Part shown: positions 732-21,627 of the stretch, in pieces
Layout of the letters: the number at the start of each line of letters is the position of its first letter
Position numbering within the stretch: the stretch's first letter is position 1
Assembly: GCA_947628135.1 (NCBI GenBank)
Contig: CANQYT010000010.1
Location: 151-64,150 of the forward strand
DNA: 64,000 nt
DNA from: an uncultured Clostridia bacterium
GTDB lineage: Bacteria; Bacillota; Clostridia; Christensenellales; CAG-314
Direction: 5' to 3'
Made by a program: the position numbers and the translations under genes
Notes under the pieces: model-generated
The model's database searches: none
Told to the model about the DNA's origin: nothing
Seen by the model: the letters and a program-made list of their open reading frames with translations, nothing else

Positions 732-1346
732 ATGAGAAAAAAACAGACGAACGATGAGAAAATCATTTCTGCACTCGATGCATTGGACAAGTCCGTGCGA
801 AATCTTCAACAATTCGGAGCAAAATACGACCCATATATTGATGAGGCGGCTATCCGCGGCGACGACGCGCGGGCAAAACAACTCATAAAGCAAAAGATAC
901 GTATTTACGATCTTGTCGAACAACTAAAAACGCTCAAAAGTAACATCGAACTCGGCGCTTATACATCGTATGCGATTTCCGAACTCGGCAAGTTGCCTGC
1001 CGCGATTGCGGGGTGCAAGGGATTGCTGGCGGAGTCGCCGGATTTTTCAAAGTTGGGCAAGAGTATCACTTCGATATTTAAAGATATCGACAAGTCCGAA
1101 AGTGAGTTGGCAAAACTCAACGAAATACTCAATCCCAAACCTGCAGTAAGCATTCCAAGTCGATTGGACGGTGTCGCAGACGACGAAGCCTCAGATCAAT
1201 TCAAGGCAGAATATGCCGCTATGATCGAACGCGTCAAGGGCAAGGTCGCTCCCGAGGCGGTTGCAAAACCGAGCGGCACAGACGTAAACACAACGGGCGA
1301 CATCGACTATGCGGGCATTGTCGCCGAAGAAAACAAAAAGAAATAG
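732..1346 (+). CDS. Snf7/ESCRT-III-like protein (204 aa)
   Basis: GGAGAGG RBS. Length, basic N-terminal and acidic C-terminal polarity, and helical-hairpin pattern (AAIRGDDARAKQLIKQKIRIYDLVEQLKTLKSNIELGAYTSYAISELGKLPAAIAGCKGLL, then DFSKLGKSITSIFKDIDKSESELAKLNEIL) parallel the CHMP/Snf7 alpha1-alpha5 layout. Lies immediately upstream of a Vps4-like ATPase. Family call is by eye only. Confidence 0.55.
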   Translation: MRKKQTNDEKIISALDALDKSVRNLQQFGAKYDPYIDEAAIRGDDARAKQLIKQKIRIYDLVEQLKTLKSNIELGAYTSYAISELGKLPAAIAGCKGLLAESPDFSKLGKSITSIFKDIDKSESELAKLNEILNPKPAVSIPSRLDGVADDEASDQFKAEYAAMIERVKGKVAPEAVAKPSGTDVNTTGDIDYAGIVAEENKKK

Positions 1347-1352
1347 CGTACT

Positions 1353-2543
1353 ATGGCAGAAGCAAGTATGATCGGCATTTTTAATAGTAAGGTAAGCGCA
1401 TTTAACGAAGCCGTAAGTGCCGGTGATGTGGACGCTGTTTGTCAATTGGCTTCGGAAATGATCCAAATCTCCTTGGAACAGTGTGCCAATCCGAATGTCA
1501 GTACAACGCTCAAAGATACTTATCGTAAACAGTGCTTGGCAGTTACAAAGCATTTGGTACACTACGCAAAACGTACGCCCGTCGCTTCCTCCAATACGGG
1601 TGGTAGCGACGAGGGTTGCGCAGACCCCTACTATACTGAAAAAAATTGGTTCTCGGACGATGTGCCCAATCTGAATTTTACCAACATTATCGGAGTTCAG
1701 GATGTCAAGGACGCTTTTATGGTCGACGTCGTAGCCCCTCTGCGCTCTGAGTTTCAGGCAGTTTATCACAAATTCAGGGGCAATCAGCTTGGCACACAGA
1801 TTTTGTTGTACGGACCGCCCGGCACGGGAAAAACCCATATAGTCAAATGTCTTGCGGGTGCGCTTAATTGCAAAATCGCGGTAGTGCCCACAAGCGAAGT
1901 ATTGGCAAGTGTCGTTGGCGTGGCAGAGAAAAATATGCGAGACATTTTTGCGCAAGCCGAAAAACTCGATCGTTGCATAATTTTCTTTGACGAAATCGAC
2001 AGCATTTGTTCCGACCGAAGTAGCGATGATTCGCGGCACACCAAGTCGATACTTACCACAATGTTGACTTGTATGGACGGGTTTATGAAAACCAAAAAAC
2101 CCAACCAGTTGCGAATAATTGTTGCGGCGACCAACCTCCCTTGGAAGTTAGATGCGGCGCTAAAACGCGGCGGTCGGTTTGAAACTCAAATATATGTTCC
2201 GTTGCCGGACAAAGAGGCGCGCAAAAAATTTGTGGAACAGGATTTAACGCAAGTTCCTCACGCGTTGGATGTCACTGTGGAATATCTCGCAAACAAGTTG
2301 GAAGGTTACGCCGGTGCGGACATAAGGGCGGTAATGAAGCAAATTTCCAACGAGCCATTGCGTCGTGAAATATTGAACATAATGAAAACCGGCAAAGAAT
2401 GCGGCGAGATGGTTACGCTTGCCGACTGTGACAAAGTAATATCATCGTATATTAACGGCGTCAACAACGAGACGTTGCTGCGATTCAAAGCATACGATTT
2501 GGGTATTACATACGAGCAATTGCTTCAACAAATCAAGAGGTAA
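1353..2543 (+). CDS. Vps4/katanin-like (meiotic-clade) AAA ATPase with N-terminal MIT-like domain
   Basis: Walker A ILLYGPPGTGKTH and Walker B IIFFDEIDS. Second region of homology AATNLPWKLDAALKRGGRFETQIYVPLPD resembles Vps4 [27 protein letters not shown]. N-terminal about 75 aa is a three-helix pattern ending YRKQCLAVTKHLVHYAKR, like MIT helix 3 of Vps4. The pore-loop-1 position reads SVVGV, with no aromatic residue. Confidence 0.85.
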   Translation: MAEASMIGIFNSKVSAFNEAVSAGDVDAVCQLASEMIQISLEQCANPNVSTTLKDTYRKQCLAVTKHLVHYAKRTPVASSNTGGSDEGCADPYYTEKNWFSDDVPNLNFTNIIGVQDVKDAFMVDVVAPLRSEFQAVYHKFRGNQLGTQILLYGPPGTGKTHIVKCLAGALNCKIAVVPTSEVLASVVGVAEKNMRDIFAQAEKLDRCIIFFDEIDSICSDRSSDDSRHTKSILTTMLTCMDGFMKTKKPNQLRIIVAATNLPWKLDAALKRGGRFETQIYVPLPDKEARKKFVEQDLTQVPHALDVTVEYLANKLEGYAGADIRAVMKQISNEPLRREILNIMKTGKECGEMVTLADCDKVISSYINGVNNETLLRFKAYDLGITYEQLLQQIKR

Positions 2544-2549
2544 AACTAA

Positions 2550-3563
2550 TTGATCGATAAGGACAAAATTGCAACATACTACTCAAACGCACGGGAACTT
2601 GTTAAACAAAATAATCCCAAAGCGGCGAGGGCTTACGTTCTCGCCATTTTGAATTGTGCATTGGAAACATATCAAAAGGCAACTAAGATTTTGACAAAAG
2701 CCAAAACGCAAGCATTTTTGGACCAATGGATAAAAGTTTCTCGTGAACTTTACGACAAAGGTGTAACCGACTTTGTGTTAGGGTGTTTTGGTCTCCCCGT
2801 CAAGCAAGATTGTCAAGTTCCCAAAACAAAAGCCGATTCCGCGCAACAGCCGTCAAAATCTTCGTCGTCGCAAGGTAAGCCCGACACATCGTCGGTGGAT
2901 GAAGTAGACATTGCCGGTCTTGTTGAAGAGTGTGCAAAAACACAAGGTTGGTGTGCGGAGCAATTTGACAAGAACAAACGGGCTGTCGTGGAAATTTCCG
3001 CCTCCAACTCGCAAAAGAATTCGACCGGGACGGGATTTATCATATCGTCCAAAGGTTACTTGCTGACAAACGACCACATCGTATATGACGAAGACGCACA
3101 AGGTTACTATCCAAAAACCAAGATGTCACTTGCGGGAGGAAAAACCGTAAAGATCAACGTTCTGTTCTCCGACAAAAAGTCCGATGTGGCGCTTTGCAGT
3201 TTCGACCCCAATTCGGCGGGAAACTTCTCGGTGATCAAGCGAATCTCAGACTATTCTCGCGTGTTACAGGGAGCGGATTGCCTTGTGATAGGTAACGCTT
3301 TCGGTATGGGATTAGCGCCTTTTTCCGGTGTGGTTCGTTTTACAAAAAACGCCGAGGGAAATCTTGTGTATACTGCGCCGTCCAACCCCGGCGACTCCGG
3401 TGGTCCGGTATTGAACAGAAACGGCGAGTGCATAGGTATCAACAAGTCCAAGACGCTCACGGTGGACAATGTTTCGGCGGACGGCTACGTCAATGCAACG
3501 CCGATGGACAAAATTGAGGAGTTGCTGTACAAGTGGTGCGACGCAAACAACATTGAATTGTAA
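2550..3563 (+). CDS. cytoplasmic trypsin-like (S1/Trypsin_2) serine protease with N-terminal MIT-like helical domain
   Basis: TTG start with an AAGAGG RBS. Catalytic triad contexts: LLTNDHIV (His), SDVALCSF (Asp), GDSGGPVLNRNGECIGI (Ser). No signal peptide. N-terminal about 75 aa helical domain, then a Ser/Pro-rich linker carrying VDEVDIAGLVEE. Confidence 0.88.
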   Translation: MIDKDKIATYYSNARELVKQNNPKAARAYVLAILNCALETYQKATKILTKAKTQAFLDQWIKVSRELYDKGVTDFVLGCFGLPVKQDCQVPKTKADSAQQPSKSSSSQGKPDTSSVDEVDIAGLVEECAKTQGWCAEQFDKNKRAVVEISASNSQKNSTGTGFIISSKGYLLTNDHIVYDEDAQGYYPKTKMSLAGGKTVKINVLFSDKKSDVALCSFDPNSAGNFSVIKRISDYSRVLQGADCLVIGNAFGMGLAPFSGVVRFTKNAEGNLVYTAPSNPGDSGGPVLNRNGECIGINKSKTLTVDNVSADGYVNATPMDKIEELLYKWCDANNIEL

Positions 3564-3661
3564 AATAATTACTAAAATGGCATCAATCATAAAATTTCCC
3601 CGAAAGGTTCTTGGAGTAATTTGTTGTTTGGGTGAAAAATAAATATGGAGGGTAACTACAG

Positions 3662-4378
3662 ATGAAATATAGCATAAAAGAAGCAAAAGAAACAATTTTG
3701 TGTAATATTGATAGATTTCAGACAGATTCCAAGGAATTGTTACGAGTCGCTGTAAACTCACTCAATCGGTGTGGCGATGATTCGTCGCCTGTGTCAAGCA
3801 GATTAAACGACCTGTTGAACAATTTTTCAATCTTGGATGACTCCGGCAGGGAACGTTGGGCAGAAAATGTTTACATAGCTGTTGTTGCAATGAAGAGAAA
3901 AGATCTTTGCAAACAGGAAATCAAACAAAAGAATGGCAAAATAGATGGCGAGACGGCTCAGTGGATTACAACAGCGGTTCAAGGCGTGTTGGGGGTCGCG
4001 TCAGTTGTTTTTACGGTATTGTTTGCATTGGGTATTATCCCAAAAGATTCGTTTGGCGAATTGGGGGAAAATTCCGACGCATTTTATTATTTGATCGGAA
4101 CAATTTGTCAACAAGTTGTTGCATTTGTTATTGCGATTGTTATCGGTCTGTGGAATCGTTGTGTGATAAGAAAGAAATATGCCAACCAGACTTTCACATT
4201 TGAAGAACTTATGTCTGTCAAGTACGAAGGAAAACCCGTCAAATTTCTCATTCAACCGGTCACAAAGATGCTAAATGTAATGATTAGTATATTTAACTTT
4301 GGTGGTCAGACGATGGTAGTGGATAATCATGATGGCTCCAAGCCAACCGAATCGAATGAGGAGGAAAATAGCAGATGA
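3662..4378 (+). CDS. 2-TM membrane protein with N-terminal helical cytoplasmic domain (paralog of 11862-12647)
   Basis: GGAGGG RBS. Two hydrophobic helices (VLGVASVVFTVLFALGII and VVAFVIAIVIGLW). N-terminus MKYSIKEAKE and the WAENV motif are shared positionally with the 11862 ORF. Confidence 0.75.
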   Translation: MKYSIKEAKETILCNIDRFQTDSKELLRVAVNSLNRCGDDSSPVSSRLNDLLNNFSILDDSGRERWAENVYIAVVAMKRKDLCKQEIKQKNGKIDGETAQWITTAVQGVLGVASVVFTVLFALGIIPKDSFGELGENSDAFYYLIGTICQQVVAFVIAIVIGLWNRCVIRKKYANQTFTFEELMSVKYEGKPVKFLIQPVTKMLNVMISIFNFGGQTMVVDNHDGSKPTESNEEENSR

Positions 4379-6963
4379 CACAAAAAAAACAAACAAATAG
4401 AATATGGGCATTCGTCAATTTTGGAAGGCAGACAATTATAGATGGCGATTCGGCGTCGTTTTATAATTGTATGGAAGATATTCGTAAACAGTTGGCGCAA
4501 ATGGTGACCAAACAGGAGTTTCAGCAGTTTCAGAGTGCGATTAGTACACAACTTGGTAATTTACAACAAATTTGTAACAATATAAGTGACTTTAAACAAA
4601 AGAAAAAACTCGTTGATAAATTTGACGGAATGATACAATTGTTGCTTGAACAGAGTCAAGAGATACAAGCATGGACGCAACAAATCTCAAATATCAACGT
4701 GCAAAGTATGCTTGATGAGATTTCGGATGTTGCCACACAAGTCAAAGAGGAAATAAAAGACAAAAAAGAAAATCTTAAGAAACAGCAAACAAATCTTCAC
4801 AACGCAACCCAAAAAGCGCGTCCAAATAAAGAAGAGATTTTGCGTTATGCTGACATTGTACAGACCCAATCACCAGATGACTTTTTTGCAAAATTTTGTC
4901 AAGCACTTTACAGCGAAAATTATCGAGAGGCAATAGATTTTATAGATAAGATTGATGTTGAGCATCTCGAAAAAGATGTGTTAAAAGATACTCTCTGTTT
5001 TTTGATAAAGCTTATGCGCCGCGAATGGATTACACCTGCATCGGGGCTTATTGAACGTGCAAGTTTTGTTTTGGAAGATAATGAGGGTTCTTTTCGAGCT
5101 GCATATAGGACGCCATTTGAACAAAAAAAGAGACAAATTGACGAAAATGTTTACGGTATTCCGACGGGGCCATTTGTGTTTGTCGCTTATAATAGTGAAA
5201 ACGTTGTCCAGGTGTCGGAACTTGTTACATTTCTTGAAGAAACACCGGGCATCAAATGTTTTGTCGCTTTTAGAAATGTTGAGAATGGACTTGATAGCGG
5301 AGAATATATAGATAAACTTCACAAGGCGATGGAAAATTGCTCAATCTTTGTACTTTATTCGACATATAAGTCTCGCAACCAGGGCGGCTCCCTTGAAGAA
5401 ATGGAGTATATAATGAATGAAGATTACCATCGTGCTACACTAGCAGGAGAGCCCAAATATGACGCAAGAAGAGTCTACAGTGATCTTCCTGATGATTACA
5501 AAAAGCCCCGAGTGGAGTTTGTGCGGGAGACAAGACAATTAAATGAAAGAGACACCATTGCCGACAAGTTTTTTGGTACGACAACTCGTAGAACTGGAAG
5601 AGAGGAGTTGAAAAAAAGAATTCTTGAATTACTTCAGAACGAAAATCGCGACGATGCATCTACTCCGGAGCAAAGCGTGAAAGAAGCCCGTAAACCTACC
5701 GGAGATACGCACAAACACACCCCCAAACATTCGGCAAAACCCATAGTAGACAAAAAAAACAATGAGACTACGCAAAGCAAGTCTGATATAAATTCCTACG
5801 GCGAGCAAAAAAAAGAATCAGATTACAACAAGGAAGATGCCGAGAAAACGAGGATGAATCTGCTCTGCAAAAAAGCATTACGTGTTCTGTTGGAAAGAAA
5901 CGACGGCAAAGCTTCCATCGCGTCGATACAGCGCAATCTCGGAATAGGTTTCAACCGTGCGGGACGAATAATGGACACTTTACAGCGTTTGGGTTACGTA
6001 GAAACGCTTTCCCCAAGCGACCCGAGTTCCAAACCCTTGAAAGTGCTCATCACCCTAGAGGAGTTGGACGAACTGTTCCCTGATTTGAAAACGCAAGCAG
6101 TTGACCCCCCTATCCGATATACAATTACGTATTCCAATGTTAAAGGGGCAGCAAATTTCAATCCGACAGGTTACACAGTCAAAGATTTGCCCCTTGACGT
6201 CAAACCCATTGCAAAAGACGGCTATTCTTTTGTTGGTTGGTATGTTGATGAGGCTATGACAAAGGGTGTCACTCGACTTACGGAACAAGGCGACTATGTT
6301 TTGTATGCTAAGTGGATAAGACGGGTTGAACCAACCGACGAATTTTCAGAAGAAGCAAGGAAATACGTGTTGGGTTACACATCCGATGATATAGTGGACG
6401 GGTGTCTCTTATTCACCCCGAAGGCGGCTGGTAAAAGTTATGAGGTGCTAAAGTTACACAAGAGTGTGGAAAAATTGATTATTCCAAGGCAATTTGATGG
6501 ACTTCCGATAACAAGCATAGGCGAGAGGGCTTTCGATGGTTGTAGTAATTTGAAAGAAATAACTATTCCGAGCAGTGTCACAAGTATAGGCGAGTTGGCA
6601 TTCAGGGATTGCACCAATTTACAAACAGTGACTTTTGAGGACGACAGTAAACTACAAAGCATAGGCGATCTCGCTTTTAGCGGTTGTCACAATTTGCAAA
6701 CAGTTTATTATGGCGGGAGTAAGTACCAGTGGAAGAAAATTAAAATAGATTACAATGTTTCGATGTCGCCAAAGGTCAGACGCTATTACTTTTTTCATTA
6801 TTGGATCAAGTACCAGCGAAAGATACTTAGAGTATGTTACAGCAATTTTGCGTTGAAAAAAGCTAACCGCTATTATTATAGCGGGGAATTTCCGAAACGG
6901 AGCAAACGGTCTTTCTATTGGCATTGGGATGAAACAAAAACGCATCCGGTCATTTGGCAATAA
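4375..6963 (+). CDS. multidomain protein: coiled coil, TIR-like domain, FtsK-gamma winged helix, Listeria/Bacteroides (Flg_new) repeat, BspA-type LRR (LRR_5)
   Basis: ATGA overlap with the upstream gene and a GAGGAGG RBS. TIR-like block FVFVAYNSENVVQVSELVTFLEETPGIKCFVAFRNVENG...IFVLYSTYKSRNQGGSLEEMEY. FtsK-gamma signature SIASIQRNLGIGFNRAGRIMDTLQRLGYVE. Flg_new-like YTITYSNVKGA...GYSFVGWYVDEAMTKGV...YAKW. LRR_5 units IPSSVTSIGELAFRDCTNLQTV. No signal peptide or TM segment. Confidence 0.8.
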   Translation: MTQKKQTNRIWAFVNFGRQTIIDGDSASFYNCMEDIRKQLAQMVTKQEFQQFQSAISTQLGNLQQICNNISDFKQKKKLVDKFDGMIQLLLEQSQEIQAWTQQISNINVQSMLDEISDVATQVKEEIKDKKENLKKQQTNLHNATQKARPNKEEILRYADIVQTQSPDDFFAKFCQALYSENYREAIDFIDKIDVEHLEKDVLKDTLCFLIKLMRREWITPASGLIERASFVLEDNEGSFRAAYRTPFEQKKRQIDENVYGIPTGPFVFVAYNSENVVQVSELVTFLEETPGIKCFVAFRNVENGLDSGEYIDKLHKAMENCSIFVLYSTYKSRNQGGSLEEMEYIMNEDYHRATLAGEPKYDARRVYSDLPDDYKKPRVEFVRETRQLNERDTIADKFFGTTTRRTGREELKKRILELLQNENRDDASTPEQSVKEARKPTGDTHKHTPKHSAKPIVDKKNNETTQSKSDINSYGEQKKESDYNKEDAEKTRMNLLCKKALRVLLERNDGKASIASIQRNLGIGFNRAGRIMDTLQRLGYVETLSPSDPSSKPLKVLITLEELDELFPDLKTQAVDPPIRYTITYSNVKGAANFNPTGYTVKDLPLDVKPIAKDGYSFVGWYVDEAMTKGVTRLTEQGDYVLYAKWIRRVEPTDEFSEEARKYVLGYTSDDIVDGCLLFTPKAAGKSYEVLKLHKSVEKLIIPRQFDGLPITSIGERAFDGCSNLKEITIPSSVTSIGELAFRDCTNLQTVTFEDDSKLQSIGDLAFSGCHNLQTVYYGGSKYQWKKIKIDYNVSMSPKVRRYYFFHYWIKYQRKILRVCYSNFALKKANRYYYSGEFPKRSKRSFYWHWDETKTHPVIWQ

Positions 6964-6999
6964 GTGGAATATAGGTGATAAATTACGAAGAAGCAAAAA

Positions 7000-7307
7000 A
7001 TGACATTTGCAGATGAATTTCGTGAGAAGTATAGATTGGCGCTTCGGGCGGCGAGAGCAAACGATCGTGAGGCGACGCTTGCGGGATTGAAAGATTTGTA
7101 CGAACTTTTTGCTGCGCAGTACGCACTAAAAACGGCGACTCCGGTGGTCCGGCATTGAACAGAAACGGCGAGTGCATAGGTATCAACAAGTCCAAGACGT
7201 TCACGGTGGACAATGTTTCGGCAGACGGCTACGTCAATGCAACGCCGATGGACAAAATTGAAGAGCTGTTGAACAAGTGGTGCAAAAGCAATAATATTGA
7301 ATTGTAA
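7000..7307 (+). pseudogene. chimeric gene remnant: 5' end of the RuvB-like gene fused to the 3' end of the protease gene, frameshifted
   Basis: 7000-7139 is a near-identical copy of 10330-10470. 7134-7307 is a near-identical copy of 3390-3563. The junction is at a shared in-frame GGCGAC (Gly-Asp) hexamer. A 1-nt deletion just 5' of the junction (cttaacaacgg versus ctaaaaacgg) gives a TGA after 52 codons. No good RBS. Confidence 0.75.
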
Positions 7308-7345
7308 ATCTTGAAAGCGATATTACAACAAAAGGAAAACAAGTT

Positions 7346-10297
7346 ATGACGATTGATGACGCAATCAAAACTTTGAAACAAGTTTTAAATAAGCCCAGAG
7401 ACGAAAAAAGCGAAGAATTTGAACAAGTTGAAACGTCCGTAAAAAATAGCATAAATTTATTAAACTGTGTCAAAAACGACGTGCTGAAAAATCCAAAGGG
7501 TGGAGATTTTGAATTGCCGAATGAGATTGGACAGTATATTACTGGAATCGATGGCAAGTCGACGTATCCAATTTACGAAATAAATTTTCCATGGGCTGCA
7601 GAATTAAACAGAAGAATAGTGTGCGGTCTAAATGGGGATGAGGTAAAGAGGAGAATTAAATGGGATACTATTTCAAAGTGGTTAACTTTCATAGGGATAG
7701 TAATTACAATAGTGATTCTCATCGTGCTTTGTCGTTTTGTCGGGGATACCATGGTGTCGATCTCAGGGACTCTTCTTTCCGTAATCACTTCTTTCGTTCC
7801 TCTTTTGTTGGATCAATCACGCAACAAGAAGTTTTATCGTACCTACGGCATTTCTATCAAGGACATTAAAAGACCTCCGATTACCGATGAAGAATACAAA
7901 AAATATATCAAAGACGCGAGAAATCTATATAAGTCGCAGAATGTGTCGGAGAGGCCCAAATTTTTTAGGGAAGATATACGAGAAGCAAAAAAAATATATA
8001 ACAAATTGCTCAAAACAAGGAAAAATGACCCCAACTGTTATGTTGGGTTGCTTGCAGTCTATTCTAAGGGCTTTTCAAAATATTCCGGTAAGTTGAGGGA
8101 AGACTATTATATTCATAAGATTAACAAGTGGAAAGGTGATGAGAAGCATTCGCATTTAGATAAGGAGTACAAAAATGATTATACAACATATACGAAAAAC
8201 ATAGTTAAACCCTATCAAGAAAACCAAAAGCAAACCAAGACGAAAAAAAACGAACAACATAGCGAGCGTGTTGCACACGCCATTTTGGTCTGGCAAAAAA
8301 TTGGAATATGTGCTGTTCTGCTACTTCCAATAATTCTCTCGAGCGTGGTTTTGGCTTTGGTATATTGCTTACCCGTAAAGACATTTGACGATTGGACGGG
8401 TTGGCTACTCACGATTATCTTTGCATTGGATTGCCTATCTGTGATAGCGGTAATTGTGCTTTTGATAGTACTTATGGTAGCAGATAATCCGGATTTCTCC
8501 GGTTTTGTGGTGGAACCTGGTGGTGTATGGGCAGCGATATGTGGAATATGCGGGGGAACATATATAATTGCTAGTATAGAAATACCGTATTGGGTGCTAA
8601 TTCTGATAGCGGTTGTTTGCCTTGCTATGTGTTTAGCTTGTCTTATTTGGGGTCTTGTAGACACAGACACATGCAAACGGCGTCTTCTTCTTGTTTGCAT
8701 TTGTATTTGTAGCGTTTTGGTTGGTTGTGCGCTTTACAGCGGTGGCCGGACTTTCTCGGAATTTGAGTCATATTATACTGAAAACCCGGACGGAACATAT
8801 ACATATCTTGTTTGGGATGAGAATGTGGAAAATTTGCAAATCCCATCCGAATATCAAGGAAAACCGGTTACTGCTATCAGTCGAGCCGACAATGTCGATT
8901 TATCCCACCTAAAATCTGTATTCATCCCCGAAAGCGTGACGTCGATTGAATTCGGGGCTTTCTCCGGTTGTAGCGCGCTTACAAATATTACGGTGCCGTA
9001 CGTGGGATATTATGATATATCTGGAGTTAAAGATTACGAAGGTGAAGCGGAGACTTTGCACCCCCTTGGGCATTTGTTCGGCACTTCGCCCTACAGTGGG
9101 GGCGTAGCGACAGAGCAATATTACTGGGGAAAGTATCTCAGTGGTGATGATGCGGGCAGAGCTGAAATTTTTTACAACACTTACTATATTCCGGAATCAC
9201 TGAAACATATAACCGTACTTGGTGGCGAAGTTTGCAACGGAGCGTTCTATGGCTGTACAAATCTTGAAAGCGTCACATTGGGTGACGGAGTGACGGCGAT
9301 TGGCGAATATGCGTTTCGAGATTGTACTTCTCTTGTGAGCGTCGCCATTGGCGAGGGTGTTACCGGTATTGGGGAAAACGCTTTTTTGAATTGTAGTGGG
9401 CTTACGAACATATATATCCCCGAAAGTGTGACGTCGATCGAGTCGGGGGCTTTCTCCGGTTGTAGCGCGCTTACAAATATTACGGTGCCGTATGTGGGAT
9501 ATTATAATATAGCCGAAGTTACAGATTACGACGGCGAAGCGGAGACTTTGCGCCCCATTGGGCATTTGTTTGGTGCCTCGCCTTACAGTGGGGGCGTAGC
9601 GATAGAGCAACGATATATTTGGGGAAAGTATCTCAGCGGGGACGAGTCGGGCGAAGAATCTGTATTTTCCAAAACTTACTATATTCCGGAATCACTGAAA
9701 CATATAACCGTACTTGGTGGCGAAGTTTGTAACGGAGCGTTCTATGGCTGTACAAATCTTGAAAGCGTCACATTGGGTGACGGTGTGACTGCGATTGGCG
9801 AATATGCGTTTCAAGATTGTACTTCTCTGGTGAGTGTCGCCATTGGCGAGAGTGTTACTACTATTGGGAAGGACGCTTTTCTAAACTGCAATGCCGTTCA
9901 AAAAAACAAAGGCATTTTGTATGTTGGCAATTGGGTTGTCGGGTGTGATAACACTGTGACAGAAGCAGAACTATCAAATGATGCCACGGGAATTGCAAAT
10001 TATGCTTTTGCAGATTTCGCATCCCTTACTTCCGTAATCTTGAACGAAAACCTAAAAATTATCGGAGAGGGCGCATTTCAAGGAACAGGAATAACCACAA
10101 TGGTAATTCCACAATCGGTTGCGGTCATTGACGCCAATGCTTTTAGTGGGTGTACACTTTCAGAAGTTGTTTTTGATAATGTTGACGAATGGTATGCGGA
10201 CAAAACTTATGTACCGTATTCCGACCTACTTGATGCCACAAAAGCCGCAAGTTGCTTAACTTCGACATACGTCGAATGTGTGTGGAAACGCGGCTAA
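7346..10297 (+). CDS. polytopic (about 7 TM) membrane protein with N-terminal helical cytoplasmic domain and C-terminal extracytoplasmic BspA-type LRR domain
   Basis: 983-aa ORF with an AAAGGA RBS. Hydrophobic helices lie at about aa 115-160 and 315-470. C-terminal half consists of repeated LRR_5 units (IPESVTSIE.GAFSGCSALTNITVP, VTAIGEYAF.DCTSLVSV). Confidence 0.85.
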   Translation: MTIDDAIKTLKQVLNKPRDEKSEEFEQVETSVKNSINLLNCVKNDVLKNPKGGDFELPNEIGQYITGIDGKSTYPIYEINFPWAAELNRRIVCGLNGDEVKRRIKWDTISKWLTFIGIVITIVILIVLCRFVGDTMVSISGTLLSVITSFVPLLLDQSRNKKFYRTYGISIKDIKRPPITDEEYKKYIKDARNLYKSQNVSERPKFFREDIREAKKIYNKLLKTRKNDPNCYVGLLAVYSKGFSKYSGKLREDYYIHKINKWKGDEKHSHLDKEYKNDYTTYTKNIVKPYQENQKQTKTKKNEQHSERVAHAILVWQKIGICAVLLLPIILSSVVLALVYCLPVKTFDDWTGWLLTIIFALDCLSVIAVIVLLIVLMVADNPDFSGFVVEPGGVWAAICGICGGTYIIASIEIPYWVLILIAVVCLAMCLACLIWGLVDTDTCKRRLLLVCICICSVLVGCALYSGGRTFSEFESYYTENPDGTYTYLVWDENVENLQIPSEYQGKPVTAISRADNVDLSHLKSVFIPESVTSIEFGAFSGCSALTNITVPYVGYYDISGVKDYEGEAETLHPLGHLFGTSPYSGGVATEQYYWGKYLSGDDAGRAEIFYNTYYIPESLKHITVLGGEVCNGAFYGCTNLESVTLGDGVTAIGEYAFRDCTSLVSVAIGEGVTGIGENAFLNCSGLTNIYIPESVTSIESGAFSGCSALTNITVPYVGYYNIAEVTDYDGEAETLRPIGHLFGASPYSGGVAIEQRYIWGKYLSGDESGEESVFSKTYYIPESLKHITVLGGEVCNGAFYGCTNLESVTLGDGVTAIGEYAFQDCTSLVSVAIGESVTTIGKDAFLNCNAVQKNKGILYVGNWVVGCDNTVTEAELSNDATGIANYAFADFASLTSVILNENLKIIGEGAFQGTGITTMVIPQSVAVIDANAFSGCTLSEVVFDNVDEWYADKTYVPYSDLLDATKAASCLTSTYVECVWKRG
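8924..9885 (+). repeat. tandem duplication of about 492 bp (about 164 aa) inside the LRR gene
   Basis: 8924-9415 and 9416-about 9885 align almost base for base. Both run from ATCCCCGAAAG.GTGACGTCGAT through GGTGACGG.GTGAC.GCGATTGGCGAATATGCGTTTC, with one codon indel. Confidence 0.85.
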
Positions 10298-10329: not shown

Positions 10330-11859
10330 ATGACATTTGCAGATGAATTTCGTGAGAAGTATAGATTGGCGCTTCGGGCGGCGAGAGCAAACGATTGTGA
10401 GGCGACGCTTGCGGGATTGAAAGATTTGTACGAACTTTTTGCTGCGCAGTACGCACTTAACAACGGCGACAGCATTGTGGTAAAGGCAAAACTTTCCTAT
10501 TGGCAGGATGTTTTCGGCGGCTATATCCAACTGATCCGTACCAATGGATTGCAGGATAGGCGTGTGCAAAAATTTTTCGGTTTGATCGACGATTCGGACG
10601 TTCCTTCGCTGGGAGATTTTTTGAGCGGTAAAGGTGCGAACGCATTGCCACCGCAAGCCACGGAAACAACTCCTCCTTGTGATGTGGATATTGCAGGTAT
10701 AGTAGATGAAGATTTGACCGAGCAACCGTCGAATCCGCCGCAAGCCAAGCAAAATGAGCCTATTTTGAATAGTGAAGGGCAATCGCCGATAGGTTTGACC
10801 CCGCCGTCTATTGAGCAACTTCCTCAACGGCCCGTTGCGGTAAAAGAAGATGTCGCGCCTGCGTTTGACCATCCGTCTGCGGAAAAAGTGGCGACTCCCG
10901 CCTATGCGCCCGACAGTTTGGAACACTTCATTGGACAGCAGCACATTGTCAAAGTGTTGCTTAAAGAAATTGCCATTGCCAAGGCAGAGGGCAAGCGTCA
11001 TCTTGACAACATTTTACTTTTGGGTAATCCCGGTCTGGGCAAAACCACATTGATGAGGTTGATTGCCGCTCAACTTGGGGTTCGGTTTGAGTGGATGGAT
11101 TGTTCTCAGTATCGCAACAGTCGGCAATCAATGAAGGCGCTCCAAAATTTTTTGGTGCGAATTGCACGAGAGAGTGAACCGGTAGTTATCGGTTTTGACG
11201 AGATTCACTGCCTTCCCGATGAGTTACAGGAAAGTCTGCTTACGCTGTTGGAAAGCAGAGTGTATGTGTCGCCCCCGGATATAAACGGCAATGTAAAACG
11301 GATACCGATTGAAGAGTTTACATTTATTGCCGCAACGACAGATGACGACAAAGTAAAAAATACAATCAAAGACCGCTGTCTGCGACTTAAATTTCAACTT
11401 GTAGACTACACAACAGATGAGTTGGCACAGATATACAGAACAAAGATTTTTGCAAAAGGTCTAACCATAACGGAAGAAGCAATACAAATTTGCATACCGC
11501 GCAGCCGCGGCTCGATACGTTATGTAAATTCTTTTGTAGACGGGATGGAGCGAGAGTTATACGATACCAACGGCAACAAACTTTCCACGCATATTGACCG
11601 CGAAACGGCGTTGAGATTTTTTGACGAACGCGGAATTGACGAGATGGGGTTGGAAAACAAGGACCGCGAAATACTAAATACCCTTTATGAGGCGGCAACG
11701 CCCATGGGCGCGGAAACTTTGTCGGCGCGCGTGGGACTTGACCCCAAAAAGTACCTTTCCGAGTACGAGCCGTATCTCATTCGTATTGGCTTTGTGGACG
11801 TTTCCGGCAGGGGTAGAAGTTTGACAGAAAAAGCAAAAGAATATTTGAAGGAAGAATAA
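10330..11859 (+). CDS. RuvB-like AAA+ ATPase with N-terminal MIT-like helical domain
   Basis: AAGGAGA RBS. RuvB-type core FIGQQHIVKVLLKEIAIAKAEGKRHLDNILLLGNPGLGKTTL, Walker B VIGFDEIH, IAATTDDDKVKNTIKDRC. RuvB domain-III-like winged helix GLENKDREILNTLYE...YEPYLIRIGFVDVSGRGRSLT. About 200-aa N-terminal extension made of a helical domain plus a linker with CDVDIAGIVDED. Confidence 0.88.
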   Translation: MTFADEFREKYRLALRAARANDCEATLAGLKDLYELFAAQYALNNGDSIVVKAKLSYWQDVFGGYIQLIRTNGLQDRRVQKFFGLIDDSDVPSLGDFLSGKGANALPPQATETTPPCDVDIAGIVDEDLTEQPSNPPQAKQNEPILNSEGQSPIGLTPPSIEQLPQRPVAVKEDVAPAFDHPSAEKVATPAYAPDSLEHFIGQQHIVKVLLKEIAIAKAEGKRHLDNILLLGNPGLGKTTLMRLIAAQLGVRFEWMDCSQYRNSRQSMKALQNFLVRIARESEPVVIGFDEIHCLPDELQESLLTLLESRVYVSPPDINGNVKRIPIEEFTFIAATTDDDKVKNTIKDRCLRLKFQLVDYTTDELAQIYRTKIFAKGLTITEEAIQICIPRSRGSIRYVNSFVDGMERELYDTNGNKLSTHIDRETALRFFDERGIDEMGLENKDREILNTLYEAATPMGAETLSARVGLDPKKYLSEYEPYLIRIGFVDVSGRGRSLTEKAKEYLKEE

Positions 11860-11861
11860 AA

Positions 11862-12647
11862 ATGAGATATACATTATCTGACGCTGTGGAATTGTTGGAA
11901 GAACTTGAAAAAAAGACTAAAAATCCACATCTCGCATCGGCAAAATCGGTGCTCAGTGATCTAAAACCCTTATTGGGAGAAAACAAGGATATGGAGTCCT
12001 TGTCAAAATTATTTGAAAAAGGAGCACAATACGCCACGCAAGCAACAAGCGACGAGACGGTTGCAGCGGATGCGGACTTTAACCTTTGGGCGGAAAACGT
12101 AGCAAAAGAGATCTTGGAATATAAGGGTGAGTGTTGTAAAAAAATACAAGACATACACAATACATATGAATCGGCGCAGTCTTTTCTCGGTAAAAGTTTG
12201 AGTAACCGAAAAAAGACCGCAATCGGTTTTTTCATAGCCTTTATGGTTCTTTCAGTGATTACCGCCGTGGTTGCAATATATGGTCTGTTTTACCACAAAG
12301 AACAGTGGGGCGAAAGCCTCGCGAGCGTACTTGGAATTATCGATTTCTCGGTTGGAATTTGCGGGGTTTTTATCGAGCGTATCAACGATATGAGAGAACA
12401 AAAAATCAGCCGTGCAATGGAAGAAATTATGCGCACTCCCACCACCCAACCGGATAAAGCCGAAGAGTATGCGAAGAATATTAAAGCGGTTATAAAAAAG
12501 TCGGTTGTCGGCAATGGCAATGAGATTTACCATATAGATAATAATGCCCAGATAAATATTATCGAAAACAGCATTGAAACAAATAATGAAACACAAAGGA
12601 ATGTACGGCAATGGGAAGAGGAGATGAAATGGTGGCTCGAAAGATAA
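11862..12647 (+). CDS. 2-TM membrane protein with N-terminal helical cytoplasmic domain (paralog of 3662-4378)
   Basis: GAAGGAAG RBS. Two TM helices (AIGFFIAFMVLSVITAVVAIYGLF and VLGIIDFSVGICGVFI). Shares the MRYTLSDAVE and WAENV positions with the 3662 ORF. Confidence 0.75.
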   Translation: MRYTLSDAVELLEELEKKTKNPHLASAKSVLSDLKPLLGENKDMESLSKLFEKGAQYATQATSDETVAADADFNLWAENVAKEILEYKGECCKKIQDIHNTYESAQSFLGKSLSNRKKTAIGFFIAFMVLSVITAVVAIYGLFYHKEQWGESLASVLGIIDFSVGICGVFIERINDMREQKISRAMEEIMRTPTTQPDKAEEYAKNIKAVIKKSVVGNGNEIYHIDNNAQINIIENSIETNNETQRNVRQWEEEMKWWLER

Positions 12648-14395
12648 TTAAATCTACCGTGGGCAATTATAATAGAGTATTCTTTCTACGAAATCTAAAA
12701 GGTGGCACAATAAACTTAAGTCAACTTCCAAACGAGTGGAAAGAATATGTGGACGAGAAGTTCCGTGCGCAAGGCGAACTACTCACGTCCCTACCGGAAG
12801 ATGTTCGGCAAATTGTATATTCGGCGGTAGTGTCCGGTATGGAAAACGTCGCCACGAAAATTGCCCACGAGCGATGCTTGCATGATAAAAACATTGATAG
12901 AGTTGAGGATATTGCAGTTTCATTAGATGAGATGAAACAGCACGAAGAAGAAATCTTTGACAACATCCTAAATATACTGAACAAAGGTCAGTTAGAAACA
13001 AACAAACGCATTGCCGCATTGCAAGAGTTAAATGAGCAGCTTCAATTCAATACTCGCAAGGCTATGGTTTATTACGAGGAGATTCTCGCAGAAATTCGTT
13101 TGGGCAAAGAGCGCATTGATGAGATTATTATTCTTGAAGAGGGAAATTCTATTGCAATAGGGGATATTAAAGAGGATATAAAGGATTTAAAAACAAACCT
13201 TGAAAACATAATATTTCGTTTCATACAACTTTCGGAAAAAAGACATGAAGAATATCAGTCAGCGCGCGCCTTGATAGATAAAGAATTTGGAAAAATCTCT
13301 TCTCTGGGATTGGATGGGCATACGATTTCGGAAATGCGAGGGTGGCTTCAAGGATTATCGAAAAAAAACAAATCTGATATTGAGAAGAGCATCAAACAAC
13401 AAGGAGATAATCTTTCTAAAGAATTATTGTTTATAAACGAAAATTTGAAAGACATCGCAAGTTCTCTCAATAGTTTGGGACGAGGACAAGAGTTAACGGA
13501 TGGCGAAATAAAACGGCTTTCCCAAAAAGCGGAAGAGATTCTTCAAAGAGAAGTAAAACTTTATGGTCTTGCATTGGACACAAATCAAACGACACATCAA
13601 ACATATGAAAAAACACAGGAAATTTTCGACTATTTAAAGGATATTCTCGTTCCGGTAGCAGACTTGGAAGAAATTTGGAGGAAGGTTTTGCAAAACACAA
13701 ATGGACCAGAAGAGGAAAAATATAAACAAAAATTAAATGAGAAAATTTGTAAACTGCAACAAAGTGCAAAAGCAATGGAACTTCAATTGCAAATCGCAGC
13801 GCAAGAGGGTGGGGCTGTCGAGGAGGCGTGTCCCTATTGTGGTTATGTTGAATTGCGCGGAATCGTTGGAGATAAGTGTCAATGTGATTGCTGTGGCAAA
13901 ACTTTCAATCGAAAAGATGTAAACCTAAAAGAGGTAGACGAATGGCGCCAAAGACACACTGCAAAATTGGAAAATGTTTACTGTATTAAAGAGGAGGACT
14001 CTTCTAAAACTCATTACTTTTGCAGAATGAAGCTGGACCAAAATACAGTCAGCCACAAGGGTGTTTTGATAATCCCATCAATTCCTCCAGAAACAACCGT
14101 CCCGGAAACAACTGCACCAAAAGTGTGGTTTGGTGATAAACTCACGCTTTCTGATGGCAAAGTCAAAATTGCTTTTTGTAAACCCAACATCGATGATGAG
14201 GTTGGTTTGGAAAGAATGCGGCGAATCAAAACGTTGATATTGCCAAGCAATATATTTTTGACCAAGTTCAATGATGCATTTCCATTTTCAGAGGGGATAG
14301 ATGACTTGGAAATGGTATTGCGATTTGATGAAAAAGAGAAAAAGTGTACATTAGACAAAGAAACATTAAAGCAAATTAAAAAGGAGAGTGTATAA
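12611..14395 (+). CDS. long coiled-coil protein with internal CxxC...CxCxxC zinc-ribbon
   Basis: 594-aa ORF. An alternative start ATG at 12629 has a better GAGGAG RBS. Heptad-rich central region. CPYCGYVELRGIVGDKCQCDCCGKTF motif. Confidence 0.75.
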   Translation: MGRGDEMVARKIIKSTVGNYNRVFFLRNLKGGTINLSQLPNEWKEYVDEKFRAQGELLTSLPEDVRQIVYSAVVSGMENVATKIAHERCLHDKNIDRVEDIAVSLDEMKQHEEEIFDNILNILNKGQLETNKRIAALQELNEQLQFNTRKAMVYYEEILAEIRLGKERIDEIIILEEGNSIAIGDIKEDIKDLKTNLENIIFRFIQLSEKRHEEYQSARALIDKEFGKISSLGLDGHTISEMRGWLQGLSKKNKSDIEKSIKQQGDNLSKELLFINENLKDIASSLNSLGRGQELTDGEIKRLSQKAEEILQREVKLYGLALDTNQTTHQTYEKTQEIFDYLKDILVPVADLEEIWRKVLQNTNGPEEEKYKQKLNEKICKLQQSAKAMELQLQIAAQEGGAVEEACPYCGYVELRGIVGDKCQCDCCGKTFNRKDVNLKEVDEWRQRHTAKLENVYCIKEEDSSKTHYFCRMKLDQNTVSHKGVLIIPSIPPETTVPETTAPKVWFGDKLTLSDGKVKIAFCKPNIDDEVGLERMRRIKTLILPSNIFLTKFNDAFPFSEGIDDLEMVLRFDEKEKKCTLDKETLKQIKKESV

Positions 14396-15177
14396 TGAAC
14401 AACTCAATATTATCGCTACAAGCGGATATTTCGCCGAACATCACTTTGGTCGCCGCCATATTATTTGCGGTGATGTTTGTTGCAGCAACGGCGTTTGTGG
14501 CATATCTTGTGATAAAACTTAAAAAAACAGTAGAAAAACATAATGCGGTTGTAAAAAAATTAGAGGCACTGTTGATTGAAAAAGAAAGAACAGTAAAAGT
14601 TCTTAATACAAAATTAATAAAAGTGCGCAATGAACGCAACGGCTTACAACAAGAGGTTGTCAATCTTACTGCGGCTTTAACGGCATCTCAAGAACAAGCG
14701 GAGCAACAACAAGGTGAATTGCAAACGCTTAACGAGAAAATTATTGATATGCAAAACCGTTTAGAAGAAGCAAAGCAATATTCCGAGTCGTTACAAACAA
14801 CCACCGACAATCCTATCCGACAAACGGAAACAACCGAATCTGCAGGCGAGGGACAATTTGAAATTGATAAACATGACCAATTGCAGAATGAGGGGGCGTC
14901 GCCCGATGTTGTGCCTATCGACAATGAGGAAATGATAAACTTGAAAAAACAAGTAGAAAGCCTCTTGTCTGAAAACGAGCAATTGCGGCGAAGAGAAGAG
15001 GAGCGTAATAAGGGGTACACCATAGAAGATTATTTTCCTGCAATAGATGCCGCCTTTGAATATGCGGACTCTTGCAAATTCGATCAAAACAACCCGCGCG
15101 GAAGTTTTGCCACACAGCGTCAACAACTAAACGAAATTCGAAAGTGGCTTGACGCATATCGTTCACAAAGGAGATAG
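14395..15177 (+). CDS. N-terminally membrane-anchored coiled-coil protein
   Basis: TAATG overlap and an AAGGAGAG RBS. One TM segment (ITLVAAILFAVMFVAATAFVAYLVI) followed by a Q/E-rich coiled coil. Confidence 0.75.
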   Translation: MNNSILSLQADISPNITLVAAILFAVMFVAATAFVAYLVIKLKKTVEKHNAVVKKLEALLIEKERTVKVLNTKLIKVRNERNGLQQEVVNLTAALTASQEQAEQQQGELQTLNEKIIDMQNRLEEAKQYSESLQTTTDNPIRQTETTESAGEGQFEIDKHDQLQNEGASPDVVPIDNEEMINLKKQVESLLSENEQLRRREEERNKGYTIEDYFPAIDAAFEYADSCKFDQNNPRGSFATQRQQLNEIRKWLDAYRSQRR

Positions 15178-15180
15178 CGT

Positions 15181-16956: not shown

Positions 16957-16964
16957 GAGAAAAA

Positions 16965-18089
16965 ATGGATAGAAATGACATCAGCGTGTTTACGCCAAAA
17001 GAGGCACCCGAGTACAAAATTGACAAAATAACGAAGGCCATACGTGAAGGGCTGCAAATTTCCCCAAGCGATAACTTTGATGAAGATTTAAACAGCATAA
17101 AAAATCAACTTTGTGCGTTGAATAAAAAGATTGAACAGCTCTCACCAAACACGGATATTTCGGCATTTGAGAAAAACGCGGATGTTTCTTCGTTGCAAGA
17201 TTACGCGGAGTTGGTGAAAAATTACGAATATCTCGCCGCGCAAGTTGCTGGGTTATATGAGGAAATCAGAACTATTCAAGCAGATATCAAGTCATTTGCA
17301 AAGAAAACAGAGATTAAATCCTTGCAAGCACAGTATATCATACTGCGTGGCCAAATTGACAAATTGAATAAAGAAATCAAAACAATTCCAACGGAAAGCA
17401 CATCATTTGCGAAAGAAACCGATGTTTCTTCATTGAACGGTCGTGTTGTTGAACTCGAAGAACAAGTAGGAAAAAACCATTCTGATTTGGAGAATAAACT
17501 CCAAGAATTGTCTCAAAAAATTAATGGTTTCCACAACGGCACCTCCGCGCAAGACACATCGCCGGAAACGGGCAAATCGCGATTATTCGGAAAATATATT
17601 TTCATTTGTGCTATATTGCTTTTCAACATATTGGCGACATCCATTATTATATGCTGTCCAAGATATTTGGGCGAGGTCGATCCGTTGCCTTGGTTTGGCA
17701 TTATACTTCTGATTGCATGTTTGATTCTCAATATTGTTGGGTCGGGCATTTGGCTTTATGAATATTACTTATCCGAAGAATATATCATGAAGAAGGGAAA
17801 CATCATATTTACAATTGTTGTTGAGGGGACATTGTTGGTTCTCAATACCGTGGTGATGTGGTTATTCGCATCTAATCCGTTGCAGGGAATTACAGGGGCA
17901 TCCATTGCGTTGACAGTGGCGTTGGTGTGTGCCAATTTTGCTATGCTTATGTTGCGGGTGCTGTATATTCTTGATGAGCATACCTTTTTCGATGTTACGC
18001 TTGATCGTTCCAGTTTAGCCATGAATATATGCGGCGCATTATGTGCGGTGGCAACAGTTATTGCACTGATCTTTGCAACGGCAGCATAA
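16965..18089 (+). CDS. coiled-coil N-domain fused to a polytopic (4-5 TM) membrane domain
   Basis: AGGAGA RBS. N-terminal half has three related segments (DISAFEKNADVSSLQDY, IKSFAKKTEIKSLQAQY, STSFAKETDVSSLNGRV). C-terminal half is strongly hydrophobic. Confidence 0.75.
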   Translation: MDRNDISVFTPKEAPEYKIDKITKAIREGLQISPSDNFDEDLNSIKNQLCALNKKIEQLSPNTDISAFEKNADVSSLQDYAELVKNYEYLAAQVAGLYEEIRTIQADIKSFAKKTEIKSLQAQYIILRGQIDKLNKEIKTIPTESTSFAKETDVSSLNGRVVELEEQVGKNHSDLENKLQELSQKINGFHNGTSAQDTSPETGKSRLFGKYIFICAILLFNILATSIIICCPRYLGEVDPLPWFGIILLIACLILNIVGSGIWLYEYYLSEEYIMKKGNIIFTIVVEGTLLVLNTVVMWLFASNPLQGITGASIALTVALVCANFAMLMLRVLYILDEHTFFDVTLDRSSLAMNICGALCAVATVIALIFATAA

Positions 18090-19974: not shown

Positions 19975-19977
19975 TTT

Positions 19978-21621: not shown

Positions 21622-21627
21622 AACGCA

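Follow-up and report, generated by a model that had tools for sequence, protein, structure and literature searches.

A 2025 review (PMC7619361) stated of a Vps4-like ATPase that it "appears absent in bacteria," and for Makarova et al. (2024), the combination of ESCRT-III (Snf7) with Vps4 is found in archaea and eukaryotes only (PMC10936438). A survey of phage shock protein systems recorded sporadic bacterial neighborhoods of PspA or Snf7 genes and AAA+ ATPase genes, as well as Vps4-like transfers in which a TPR-6TM gene stands in the place of snf7 (PMC11237479). Here, we describe a locus in a 64,000-nucleotide (nt) stretch of contig CANQYT010000010.1 from an uncultured Clostridia bacterium (the whole stretch is called the window, and all coordinates are positions in it), in which a gene for an ESCRT-III-like protein (gene B) is followed by a gene for an AAA ATPase with an MIT-like N-terminal domain. 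Together with another small gene (gene A), a trypsin-like serine protease and a RuvB-like ATPase, they probably constitute an ESCRT-III/Vps4-like membrane-remodeling module, which resides on integrated mobile elements of one family in gut Bacillota. An earlier note on this DNA had called such a pairing unusual for bacteria, in agreement with the 2024–2025 reviews (PMC7619361; PMC10936438). Against the archaeal and eukaryotic view taken in these reviews, the locus presents a conserved bacterial operon with the two-part ESCRT-III/Vps4 logic and additional enzyme clients on mobile DNA, and full-text literature searches returned no description of this A–B–AAA–protease–RuvB-like system.

In archaeal CdvB/CdvC and in Asgard and eukaryotic ESCRT-III/Vps4, as in the proteins described here, the ESCRT-III-type partner changes from a basic N-terminus to an acidic C-terminus and has a conserved C-terminal helix beyond a flexible linker (compare the MIT-interacting motif, MIM), and in the ATPase the lid domain is followed by a helix at the C-terminus. 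The present locus differs from them in its bacterial host, its mobile-element setting and its sequence similarity, which is very low and speaks for something other than a recent transfer. Unlike ESCRT and Cdv loci, it has no ESCRT-I/II, CdvA or winged-helix partners, and instead encodes a RuvB-like ATPase and a protease that have an adaptor domain in common. PspA, Vipp1 (IM30) and LiaH are likewise bacterial members of the ESCRT-III superfamily and act at the membrane; however, the partners in PspA systems are PspF, PspBC or LiaI, with no MIT–AAA protein among them. The cases of the phage shock protein survey resemble our locus as computational sightings of bacterial ESCRT-III superfamily genes beside AAA+ ATPases. 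They fall into three groups (PspA beside a two-domain AAA+ protein; transmembrane (TM)-bearing Snf7 with genes for an ABC transporter and OmpA; Vps4-like ATPases with TPR-6TM replacing snf7), and none of them shows the protease and the RuvB-like client, the mobile-element setting close to an integrase or the distribution in gut Bacillota found here (PMC11237479).

Organization and conservation of the locus

Gene A (102–716; 204 amino acids (aa)), gene B (732–1346; 204 aa), the AAA ATPase gene (1353–2543; 396 aa) and the gene for an HtrA-like trypsin-fold serine protease (2550–3563; 337 aa) follow one another on the + strand; the first three open reading frames (ORFs) were found exactly where the earlier note had placed them. 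The gaps measure 15 nt between A and B, 6 nt between B and the ATPase gene, and 6 nt between the ATPase and protease genes, and this spacing of 6–15 nt suggests that the four genes form an operon. A variable cargo slot (3662–10297, +) lies between the protease gene and the gene for a RuvB-like AAA+ ATPase (10330–11859, +; 509 aa), after which a set of membrane and coiled-coil genes continues on the same strand (11862–18089).

Database searches returned 248 relatives of B at E ≤ 1e-3 (in a database clustered at 90% identity), represented by 92 sequences at 50% clustering, and relatives of the ATPase numbered in the thousands. Because B has many database relatives and the gene order is conserved, the ORFs of A, B and the ATPase are real genes rather than chance ORFs. 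We compared 39 loci, in which the identity of B ranged from 88% down to approximately 20%. The conserved order was A, B, AAA ATPase, trypsin-like protease, variable slot and RuvB-like ATPase. The ATPase gene directly followed B in 35 of the 37 loci with enough sequence, a relative of A lay upstream of B in 31 of 35, the protease gene lay downstream of B in all 32 loci that could be scored, and the RuvB-like gene was present downstream in each of the 24 loci that offered 8 kb or more of sequence for it. This order was retained even where the identity of B was just 20–30%. The earlier note had overlooked the wider unit with its protease and RuvB-like protein, their common N-terminal domain and the mobile-element setting.

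In one locus (L029), A, B, the protease and the RuvB-like gene were present and the AAA gene was absent; in another (L003), a gene of 770 aa followed B in the place of the ATPase.

Gene B and the ESCRT-III superfamily

The Pfam Snf7 model matched B at E = 5.1e-5, with a score of 23.4 bits that falls under the gathering score of 27.3. Individual Pfam scans of 71 diverse relatives of B detected Snf7 in nine (best E = 3.4e-7) and PspA_IM30 in one. A profile built from the diverse B family reached CHMP2A among the PDB sequences at E = 0.0046, in a collinear alignment of query residues 9–140 with CHMP2A residues 9–138, and CdvB and CHMP3 came next (E ~0.08). When this profile was compared by hhalign, it aligned with five eukaryotic ESCRT-III sequences over 147 columns with a probability of 74.9% (E = 2.6e-5), versus 0.4% for Escherichia coli PspA; among the five sequences, the CHMP2A stretch matches the PDB alignment. 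A direct phmmer search of B against the PDB gave no ESCRT-III match, nor did hmmsearch with a profile of close relatives, CHMP2A being reached by the diverse profile only. No match for B was found in PADLOC, NCBIfam or PHROGs.

The AlphaFold2 model of B (predicted local distance difference test (pLDDT) score 68.5) contained helices at residues 7–41, 45–86, 88–101, 105–133 and 155–172 and a tail helix at residues 193–203. In this model of moderate confidence, the order of helices is that of ESCRT-III proteins, namely a long α1–α2 hairpin followed by the shorter α3–α5. In a Foldseek search of the PDB, ranks 1–14 were all ESCRT-III structures (probability 0.80–0.99 for ranks 1–13 and 0.30 for rank 14), including CHMP1B, CHMP2A, CHMP3, Asgard ESCRT-IIIB, Loki CHMP4-7, CdvB and CdvB2, whereas Vipp1 and PspA ranked lower with probabilities of 0.1–0.5. 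The top match in the viral library BFVD was a Megaviridae "Snf7 family protein" (probability 0.99).

Each of these four independent signals is weak; because they concur, the assignment of B to the ESCRT-III superfamily, and within it to the Snf7/CHMP type rather than the PspA type, is supported. The preference for Snf7/CHMP over PspA appeared alike in hhalign (75% versus 0.4%), in the Pfam scans of the relatives (nine versus one) and in Foldseek. The proposal that B is Snf7-like was therefore supported by the sub-threshold Pfam match, the profile match to CHMP2A, the hhalign comparison and the top structural ranks, and the suggested profile check of 732–1346 against Snf7/CHMP and PspA favored the former in consistent signals, no one of which decides the matter by itself. 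A coincidental likeness would mean that B is a generic coiled coil, that the ATPase's N-terminal domain is a generic bundle, and that the genes are unrelated neighbors. The E-values of the fold and profile searches are all weak, and coiled coils and small helical bundles do draw spurious matches. We nevertheless regard this explanation as highly improbable: four independent methods returned the same family, with ESCRT-III structures at PDB ranks 1–14 and Snf7 at the top of the viral library; the alignment with CHMP2A is collinear over approximately 130–150 residues; and the gene order is held at 20–30% identity.

The net charge of B by quarter was +1, +3, −2 and −3, that is, basic toward the N-terminus and acidic toward the C-terminus, and a Lys-rich N-terminus was retained throughout the family. 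The B family carries a C-terminal amphipathic helix after an Ala/Pro/Thr-rich linker, as in DIDYAGIVAEENKKK, DIDAITAMIDEENRK and KVDAIAAMLDEEKRK; in the window, this tail reads TGDIDYAGIVAEENKKK (1293–1343, +). Its motif, [DN]-[IV]-D-x-I-x-x-[MI]-[IL]-D-[ED]-E-[NK]-[KR]-K, was retained in relatives of approximately 20% overall identity. The tail helix is a candidate MIM-like docking element, and the layout of B, as read from the sequence, is that of an ESCRT-III protein with such a tail.

The AAA ATPase

The ATPase is built from an N-terminal domain, one AAA cassette and a helix at the C-terminus. Pfam detected AAA (E = 1.4e-35) and AAA_lid_3, and motif reading placed Walker A at 1812–1835 and Walker B (FFDEID) at 1983–2000, both on the + strand. 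Walker A, Walker B, sensor-1 and the Arg fingers are all intact, and the protein appears to be an active, classical AAA ATPase. Pore loop 1 reads SVVGV (1908–1922, +), with Val in place of the aromatic residue. This reading, which had been noted before as VVG, was confirmed and extended, as a non-aromatic V/I/L-V-G was found throughout the ATPase family.

The second region of homology, ATNLPWKLDAALKRGGRFETQIYVPLPD (2127–2210, +), was present as previously quoted and contains both Arg fingers. It had been taken as a Vps4/katanin-type signature, and this holds for its NLPW.LD part, which resembles Vps4. The part reading KRGGRFETQ, however, contains a two-residue insertion (KR-GG-RFE) as in the classic RPGRFD of CDC48, FtsH and PAN, whereas the reference sequences of the meiotic clade read RRRFE without the insertion; the signature as a whole is mixed.

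Similarity scores were likewise divided. The NCBIfam scores of the ATPase were 171 bits for CDC48, 152 for FtsH, 140 for CdvC, 136 for PAN and 111 for IteA, all far below the respective cut-offs. The CdvC match was nearly end to end, aligning query residues 51–380 with profile positions 51–363 of 370 (140 bits versus a cut-off of 650). The reference AAA cassettes used for comparison were near-identical to PDB chains (approximately 2.1 bits per residue). In phmmer comparisons with these single domains, Vps4 scored 135.7, VPS4B 126.5, p97-D2 123.8, katanin 118.5 and FtsH 117.9, and the hidden Markov model of the family scored 166 for katanin, 162.6 for Vps4 and 161.8 for p97-D2; at the sequence level, Vps4/katanin and p97-D2 are tied.

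A neighbor-joining (NJ) tree with 11 references separated the family together with Vps4, katanin, spastin, ATAD1 and CdvC from p97-D1, p97-D2, PAN, FtsH and NSF-D1 with a bootstrap value of 83.5%, and two variants of the alignment gave the same split at 92% and 83%. In these trees, the family branched as the sister group of the meiotic clade, and in none of them was it nested inside. When three plasmid AAA proteins (from Thermococcus, Haladaptatus and Streptomyces) were added, the support for the split went down to 36%, and the family paired with the haloarchaeal plasmid protein at 59%. A strict assignment to the Vps4 clade was rejected in view of the indel in the second region and the tree with the three plasmid proteins. 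The earlier placement of the ATPase inside the Vps4/katanin (meiotic) clade was thus not established: the scores tie, the trees never nest the family there, and the support collapses with added AAA proteins. The ATPase differs from Vps4 and CdvC in its RGGRF second region and in lacking the Vps4 β-domain, the aromatic pore loop and any Pfam MIT or Vps4_C match. We consider it to be Vps4-like in architecture and genomic partnership, with orthology to Vps4 not established.

The N-terminal domain (residues 1–75; 1353–1577, +) was predicted by AlphaFold2 as a three-helix bundle with helices at residues 2–23, 26–45 and 51–73 (pLDDT 85.3; predicted template modeling score 0.70), as the earlier note had expected. 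In a Foldseek search of the PDB, the first match was the MIT domain of VPS4B, with E-values of just 0.4–1, and further matches included VPS4A, SKD1, Sulfolobus Vps4 (2w2u), NRBF2, spartin, MITD1 and the katanin N-domain. The MIT domain of Sulfolobus Vps4 (2v6y) superimposed with template modeling scores of 0.78/0.84 and a root mean square deviation of 1.8 Å. Pfam found neither MIT nor Vps4_C at the ends of the ATPase and none in the protease's N-terminal domain; N-domain profiles had no MIT match among PDB sequences; and hhalign of the three N-domain profiles (ATPase, protease and RuvB-like) against a small MIT alignment gave probabilities of at most 2%. The suggested resemblance to MIT was therefore supported for the fold, the best structural matches being MIT domains of Vps4/CdvC, and not for the sequence. 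Because a sequence-level MIT signal was missing in Pfam, PDB and hhalign searches, we use "MIT-like" as a statement about the predicted fold, which is that of a simple three-helix bundle.

Gene callers chose the second Met (position 1368; 391 aa) as the start of the ATPase on closely related contigs. The conservation of an MAEASM N-terminus in relatives favors the upstream ATG at 1353.

The longest match of the ATPase in a tblastn search of PLSDB was a Thermococcus plasmid protein, covering 85% of the query from residue 10 and thus reaching into the N-terminal domain. On the Thermococcus peptonophilus plasmid NZ_CP014751.1 (13378–26364), three ESCRT-III-looking genes of 188–201 aa accompany genes for a Ser/Thr kinase, a PP2C phosphatase and an AAA ATPase with an MIT-like N-terminus. 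The second region of this ATPase is of the meiotic type, and the protein groups with Vps4 in an NJ tree. One of the small plasmid proteins showed a weak match to the B family (hhalign probability 44%).

The protease, the RuvB-like ATPase and their shared N-terminal domain

The protease matched Trypsin_2 over residues 160–297 (Pfam, E = 4.2e-19) and the DegP/HtrA family (NCBIfam, E = 1.6e-23), and its catalytic motifs are readable in the translation (His in NDH, Asp in DVAL and Ser in GDSGGP). The RuvB-like ATPase matched the NCBIfam RuvB model at E = 1.5e-47 (162 bits, below the cut-off of 282) and Pfam RuvB_N and RuvB_C, and ends in a C-terminal winged helix. Both proteins begin with a helical adaptor domain (residues 1–86 of the protease, 2550–2807; residues 1–85 of the RuvB-like protein, 10330–10584; both +). 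The two domains are homologous from end to end (hhalign probability 97.1%, E = 6.2e-11, 82 columns). The AAA ATPase's N-terminal domain matched them weakly and in register (E ~8e-4, probability ~25%). A homologue search with the shared profile of the protease and RuvB-like domains returned 10 short fragments.

Because the protease's N-terminal domain is common to the RuvB-like protein and not to the ATPase, it points to a common scaffold rather than to direct coupling of the ATPase and the protease. This arrangement bears on the idea of a split AAA–protease machine analogous to FtsH or Lon, in which the ATPase would unfold substrates for the trypsin-like protease, and A and B would be adaptors or substrates steering the life cycle of the element, such as its excision or transfer. 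The ATPase and protease genes are indeed adjacent and co-occurring, the AAA domain scores well against the unfoldases FtsH, PAN and CDC48, and a ClpP-like gene is also present on the element. However, the distribution of the N-terminal domain is not the one expected of such a machine, the aromatic residue that processive unfoldases typically have in pore loop 1 is missing, and no HtrA-type protease is known to dock on an AAA ring. We consider a split machine very unlikely.

A scaffold with several enzyme clients has a likeness in the eukaryotic MIT effectors (calpain-7, AMSH/USP8, spastin and MITD1), in which varied enzymes, a protease among them, address one ESCRT-III scaffold by means of a small helical domain at their N-terminus. 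Unlike these effectors, the enzymes of the present locus are an HtrA-type protease and a RuvB-like ATPase, and their putative adaptor resembles the ATPase's N-terminal domain just weakly, if in register.

The combination of a serine protease and a classical AAA ATPase, both encoded on mobile DNA, also recalls the Iet (IetA–IetS) defense system. In an Iet-like system of defense or abortive infection, the ATPase and the protease would be the working pair and A and B coiled-coil sensors or regulators, the likeness to ESCRT-III being irrelevant; a trigger, for instance a phage or a rival element, would free the protease, and the cell would be killed or arrested. The ATPase matched IetA of PADLOC at E = 9.9e-35 and IteA of NCBIfam at E = 9e-32; the N-terminal region and the trypsin domain of the protease weakly matched RT-Protease and LmuA, two models of proteases linked to defense; TIR-like and leucine-rich repeat (LRR) cargo lies in the middle of the locus; and defense genes tend to cluster in mobile elements such as this one. 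The IteA score, however, was 110.6 bits against a cut-off of 510 and lower than the CDC48, FtsH and CdvC scores, and no PADLOC model matched A or B. IetS is a subtilisin-type protease, whereas the protease here is of the trypsin/HtrA type. Iet has no ESCRT-III-like genes, and an Iet-like system would leave unexplained the ESCRT-III fold, the tail helix, the MIT-like domain and the RuvB-like partner with the adaptor of the protease; moreover, the TIR/LRR cargo varies, and many loci have none of it. Orthology of the ATPase to IetA was rejected on the curated cut-offs and the type of the neighboring protease, and an Iet-like function of the locus is, in our judgment, unlikely.

The mobile element and its carriers

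The carriers of the locus were gut metagenome-assembled genomes assigned to Clostridia, Christensenellales, "Coproplasma," Acholeplasmatales, Anaeroplasma and Bacilli. In the window, the GC content was 39–45% in the first 26 kb versus 51–57% in the rest, and host genes for SAM synthetase (metK), RecD2 (recD2), SecA (secA), RF2 (prfB) and DnaE (dnaE) were found from approximately 33 kb. A tyrosine integrase gene lies just upstream of A in five of the relatives. The left part of the window is an integrated element, the integrase of which, judging from these relatives, lies just off the left edge. The intervals 19411–23328 and 23614–24666 encode a ClpP-like protease, a 547-aa protein, a coupling protein of the VirD4/TraG type and an FtsK-gamma helix-turn-helix protein; the ClpP-like protein also matches phage head-maturation protease families. 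Neither VirB4 nor a relaxase was recognized among the proteins of the element in the window. As relatives of B were found neither among INPHARED phages nor among PLSDB plasmids nor in IMG/VR, a phage or plasmid origin was dropped.

Proposed mechanism

The interpretation of the locus as a membrane-remodeling module draws on the Snf7-type similarity and ESCRT-III-style layout of B, the operon-like spacing, the linkage of B with the AAA ATPase, protease and RuvB-like genes, the intact catalytic motifs of the ATPase, its MIT-like fold, its near end-to-end alignment with CdvC and its single-domain scores, which peak with Vps4 and katanin, the homology between the N-terminal domains of protease and RuvB-like protein, the membrane and coiled-coil neighbors, and the position next to an integrase on a low-GC island with a VirD4/TraG gene. 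In such a module, the basic N-terminus and helical core of B would let it polymerize on the cytoplasmic side of the membrane, and its conserved C-terminal helix would be exposed at the end of the flexible linker. The AAA ATPase would dock on this tail through its MIT-like three-helix domain and spend ATP on remodeling or disassembling the B polymer; because its pore loop has no aromatic residue, its grip on the substrate may be weaker than, or different from, that of Vps4. The protease and the RuvB-like motor would presumably be recruited to the same scaffold via their shared adaptor, perhaps through the conserved tail of A. As to the purpose of this activity, we slightly favor transfer of the element itself, or membrane-associated handling of DNA, over defense.

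Several observations weigh against a membrane-remodeling module. Each ESCRT-III signal of B is weak alone (Pfam below gathering, Foldseek E ≥ 0.02 and pLDDT 68.5), and gene A has no fold recognizable by sequence and profile searches. The MIT-like assignment rests on a very simple three-helix fold without a sequence-level signal, and ribosomal protein bS20 was interleaved with the MIT matches and scored about equally. In the ATPase, pore loop 1 lacks the aromatic residue, the classic-type second region and the unstable tree make orthology to Vps4 not demonstrable, and the defense ATPase IetA of PADLOC is matched at 1e-34. The TIR-like and LRR cargo in the slot would equally suit a defense island.

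We hold only tentatively, and with more doubt than belief, a further-reaching proposal in which the locus is a functional bacterial counterpart of ESCRT-III/Vps4, with an ESCRT-III-type polymer as membrane platform, the tails of which recruit the Vps4-like ATPase, the HtrA-like protease and the RuvB-like motor by way of small helical adaptors at the N-termini of these enzymes, in the service of the element. As parts of the same proposal, the membrane event could be, for example, vesicle- or bridge-mediated DNA export, or abortive infection, and the lineage would be old rather than a recent archaeal import. If true, this proposal would bear on when ESCRT-III gained a dedicated AAA ATPase. If the proteins of the membrane-remodeling module interact as predicted, they would offer a small-protein bacterial system for studying ATP-driven remodeling of ESCRT-III and a test case for a remodeling AAA ATPase with a non-aromatic pore loop, the use of ESCRT-III tails as a recruitment code for helical adaptors would extend to bacteria, and it could be asked what event at the membrane makes such a machine necessary for a mobile element of the gut.

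Gene A

Gene A encodes a conserved partner without a family assignment. Its product has a basic N-terminal half, an acidic C-terminal part and a conserved tail motif, P..EIEEVIRAAEAAIPD, with a net charge by quarter of +4, +3, 0 and −7; together with the values for B, these charges confirm the basic-to-acidic polarity that had been described for both 204-aa proteins. The idea that A is also an ESCRT-III relative found no profile signal: no family was found in Pfam, NCBIfam, PADLOC or PHROG searches, hhalign of the A family gave a probability of 0.5% with the B family and less than 1% with ESCRT-III or PspA, and the A family had no match among PDB sequences. Six loci carried two or three tandem copies of A, and the second copy often lacked the acidic middle segment and retained the conserved tail motif.

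The cargo slot and the downstream genes

In the window, the cargo slot holds, all on the + strand, genes for a protein with two TM segments (3662–4378), a TIR-like/FtsK-gamma/BspA-LRR protein (4375–6963) and a BspA-LRR membrane protein (7346–10297), and a chimeric gene remnant (7000–7308) that divides the two cargo cassettes of the slot. Positions 7000–7139 of the remnant share 97.9% identity with the RuvB-like gene's 5′ 141 nt (10330–10470), and positions 7133–7308 share 92% identity with the protease gene's 3′ 176 nt (3389–3564). The remnant suggests that sister elements whose cargo differed at this one hotspot have recombined. In the relatives, the gap between the protease and RuvB-like genes was empty in many loci and otherwise held BspA-type LRR, TIR-like or TM genes; as a variable hotspot, the slot was recorded in 13 loci besides the window.

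The genes at 11862–18089 (+), read from translations and Pfam, encode X261 (two TM segments), Y594 (a coiled coil and a Cys-rich motif), Z260 (an N-terminal TM segment and a coiled coil), an Hsp70/actin-fold ATPase assigned by Pfam (15181–16956) and W374 (a coiled coil and multiple TM segments). They may belong to the same functional unit as the genes upstream, and the full set recurred in four of the loci. In two distant loci, the Hsp70-like gene alone scored (E = 5e-5), and unscored genes of matching size lay upstream of it in another order.

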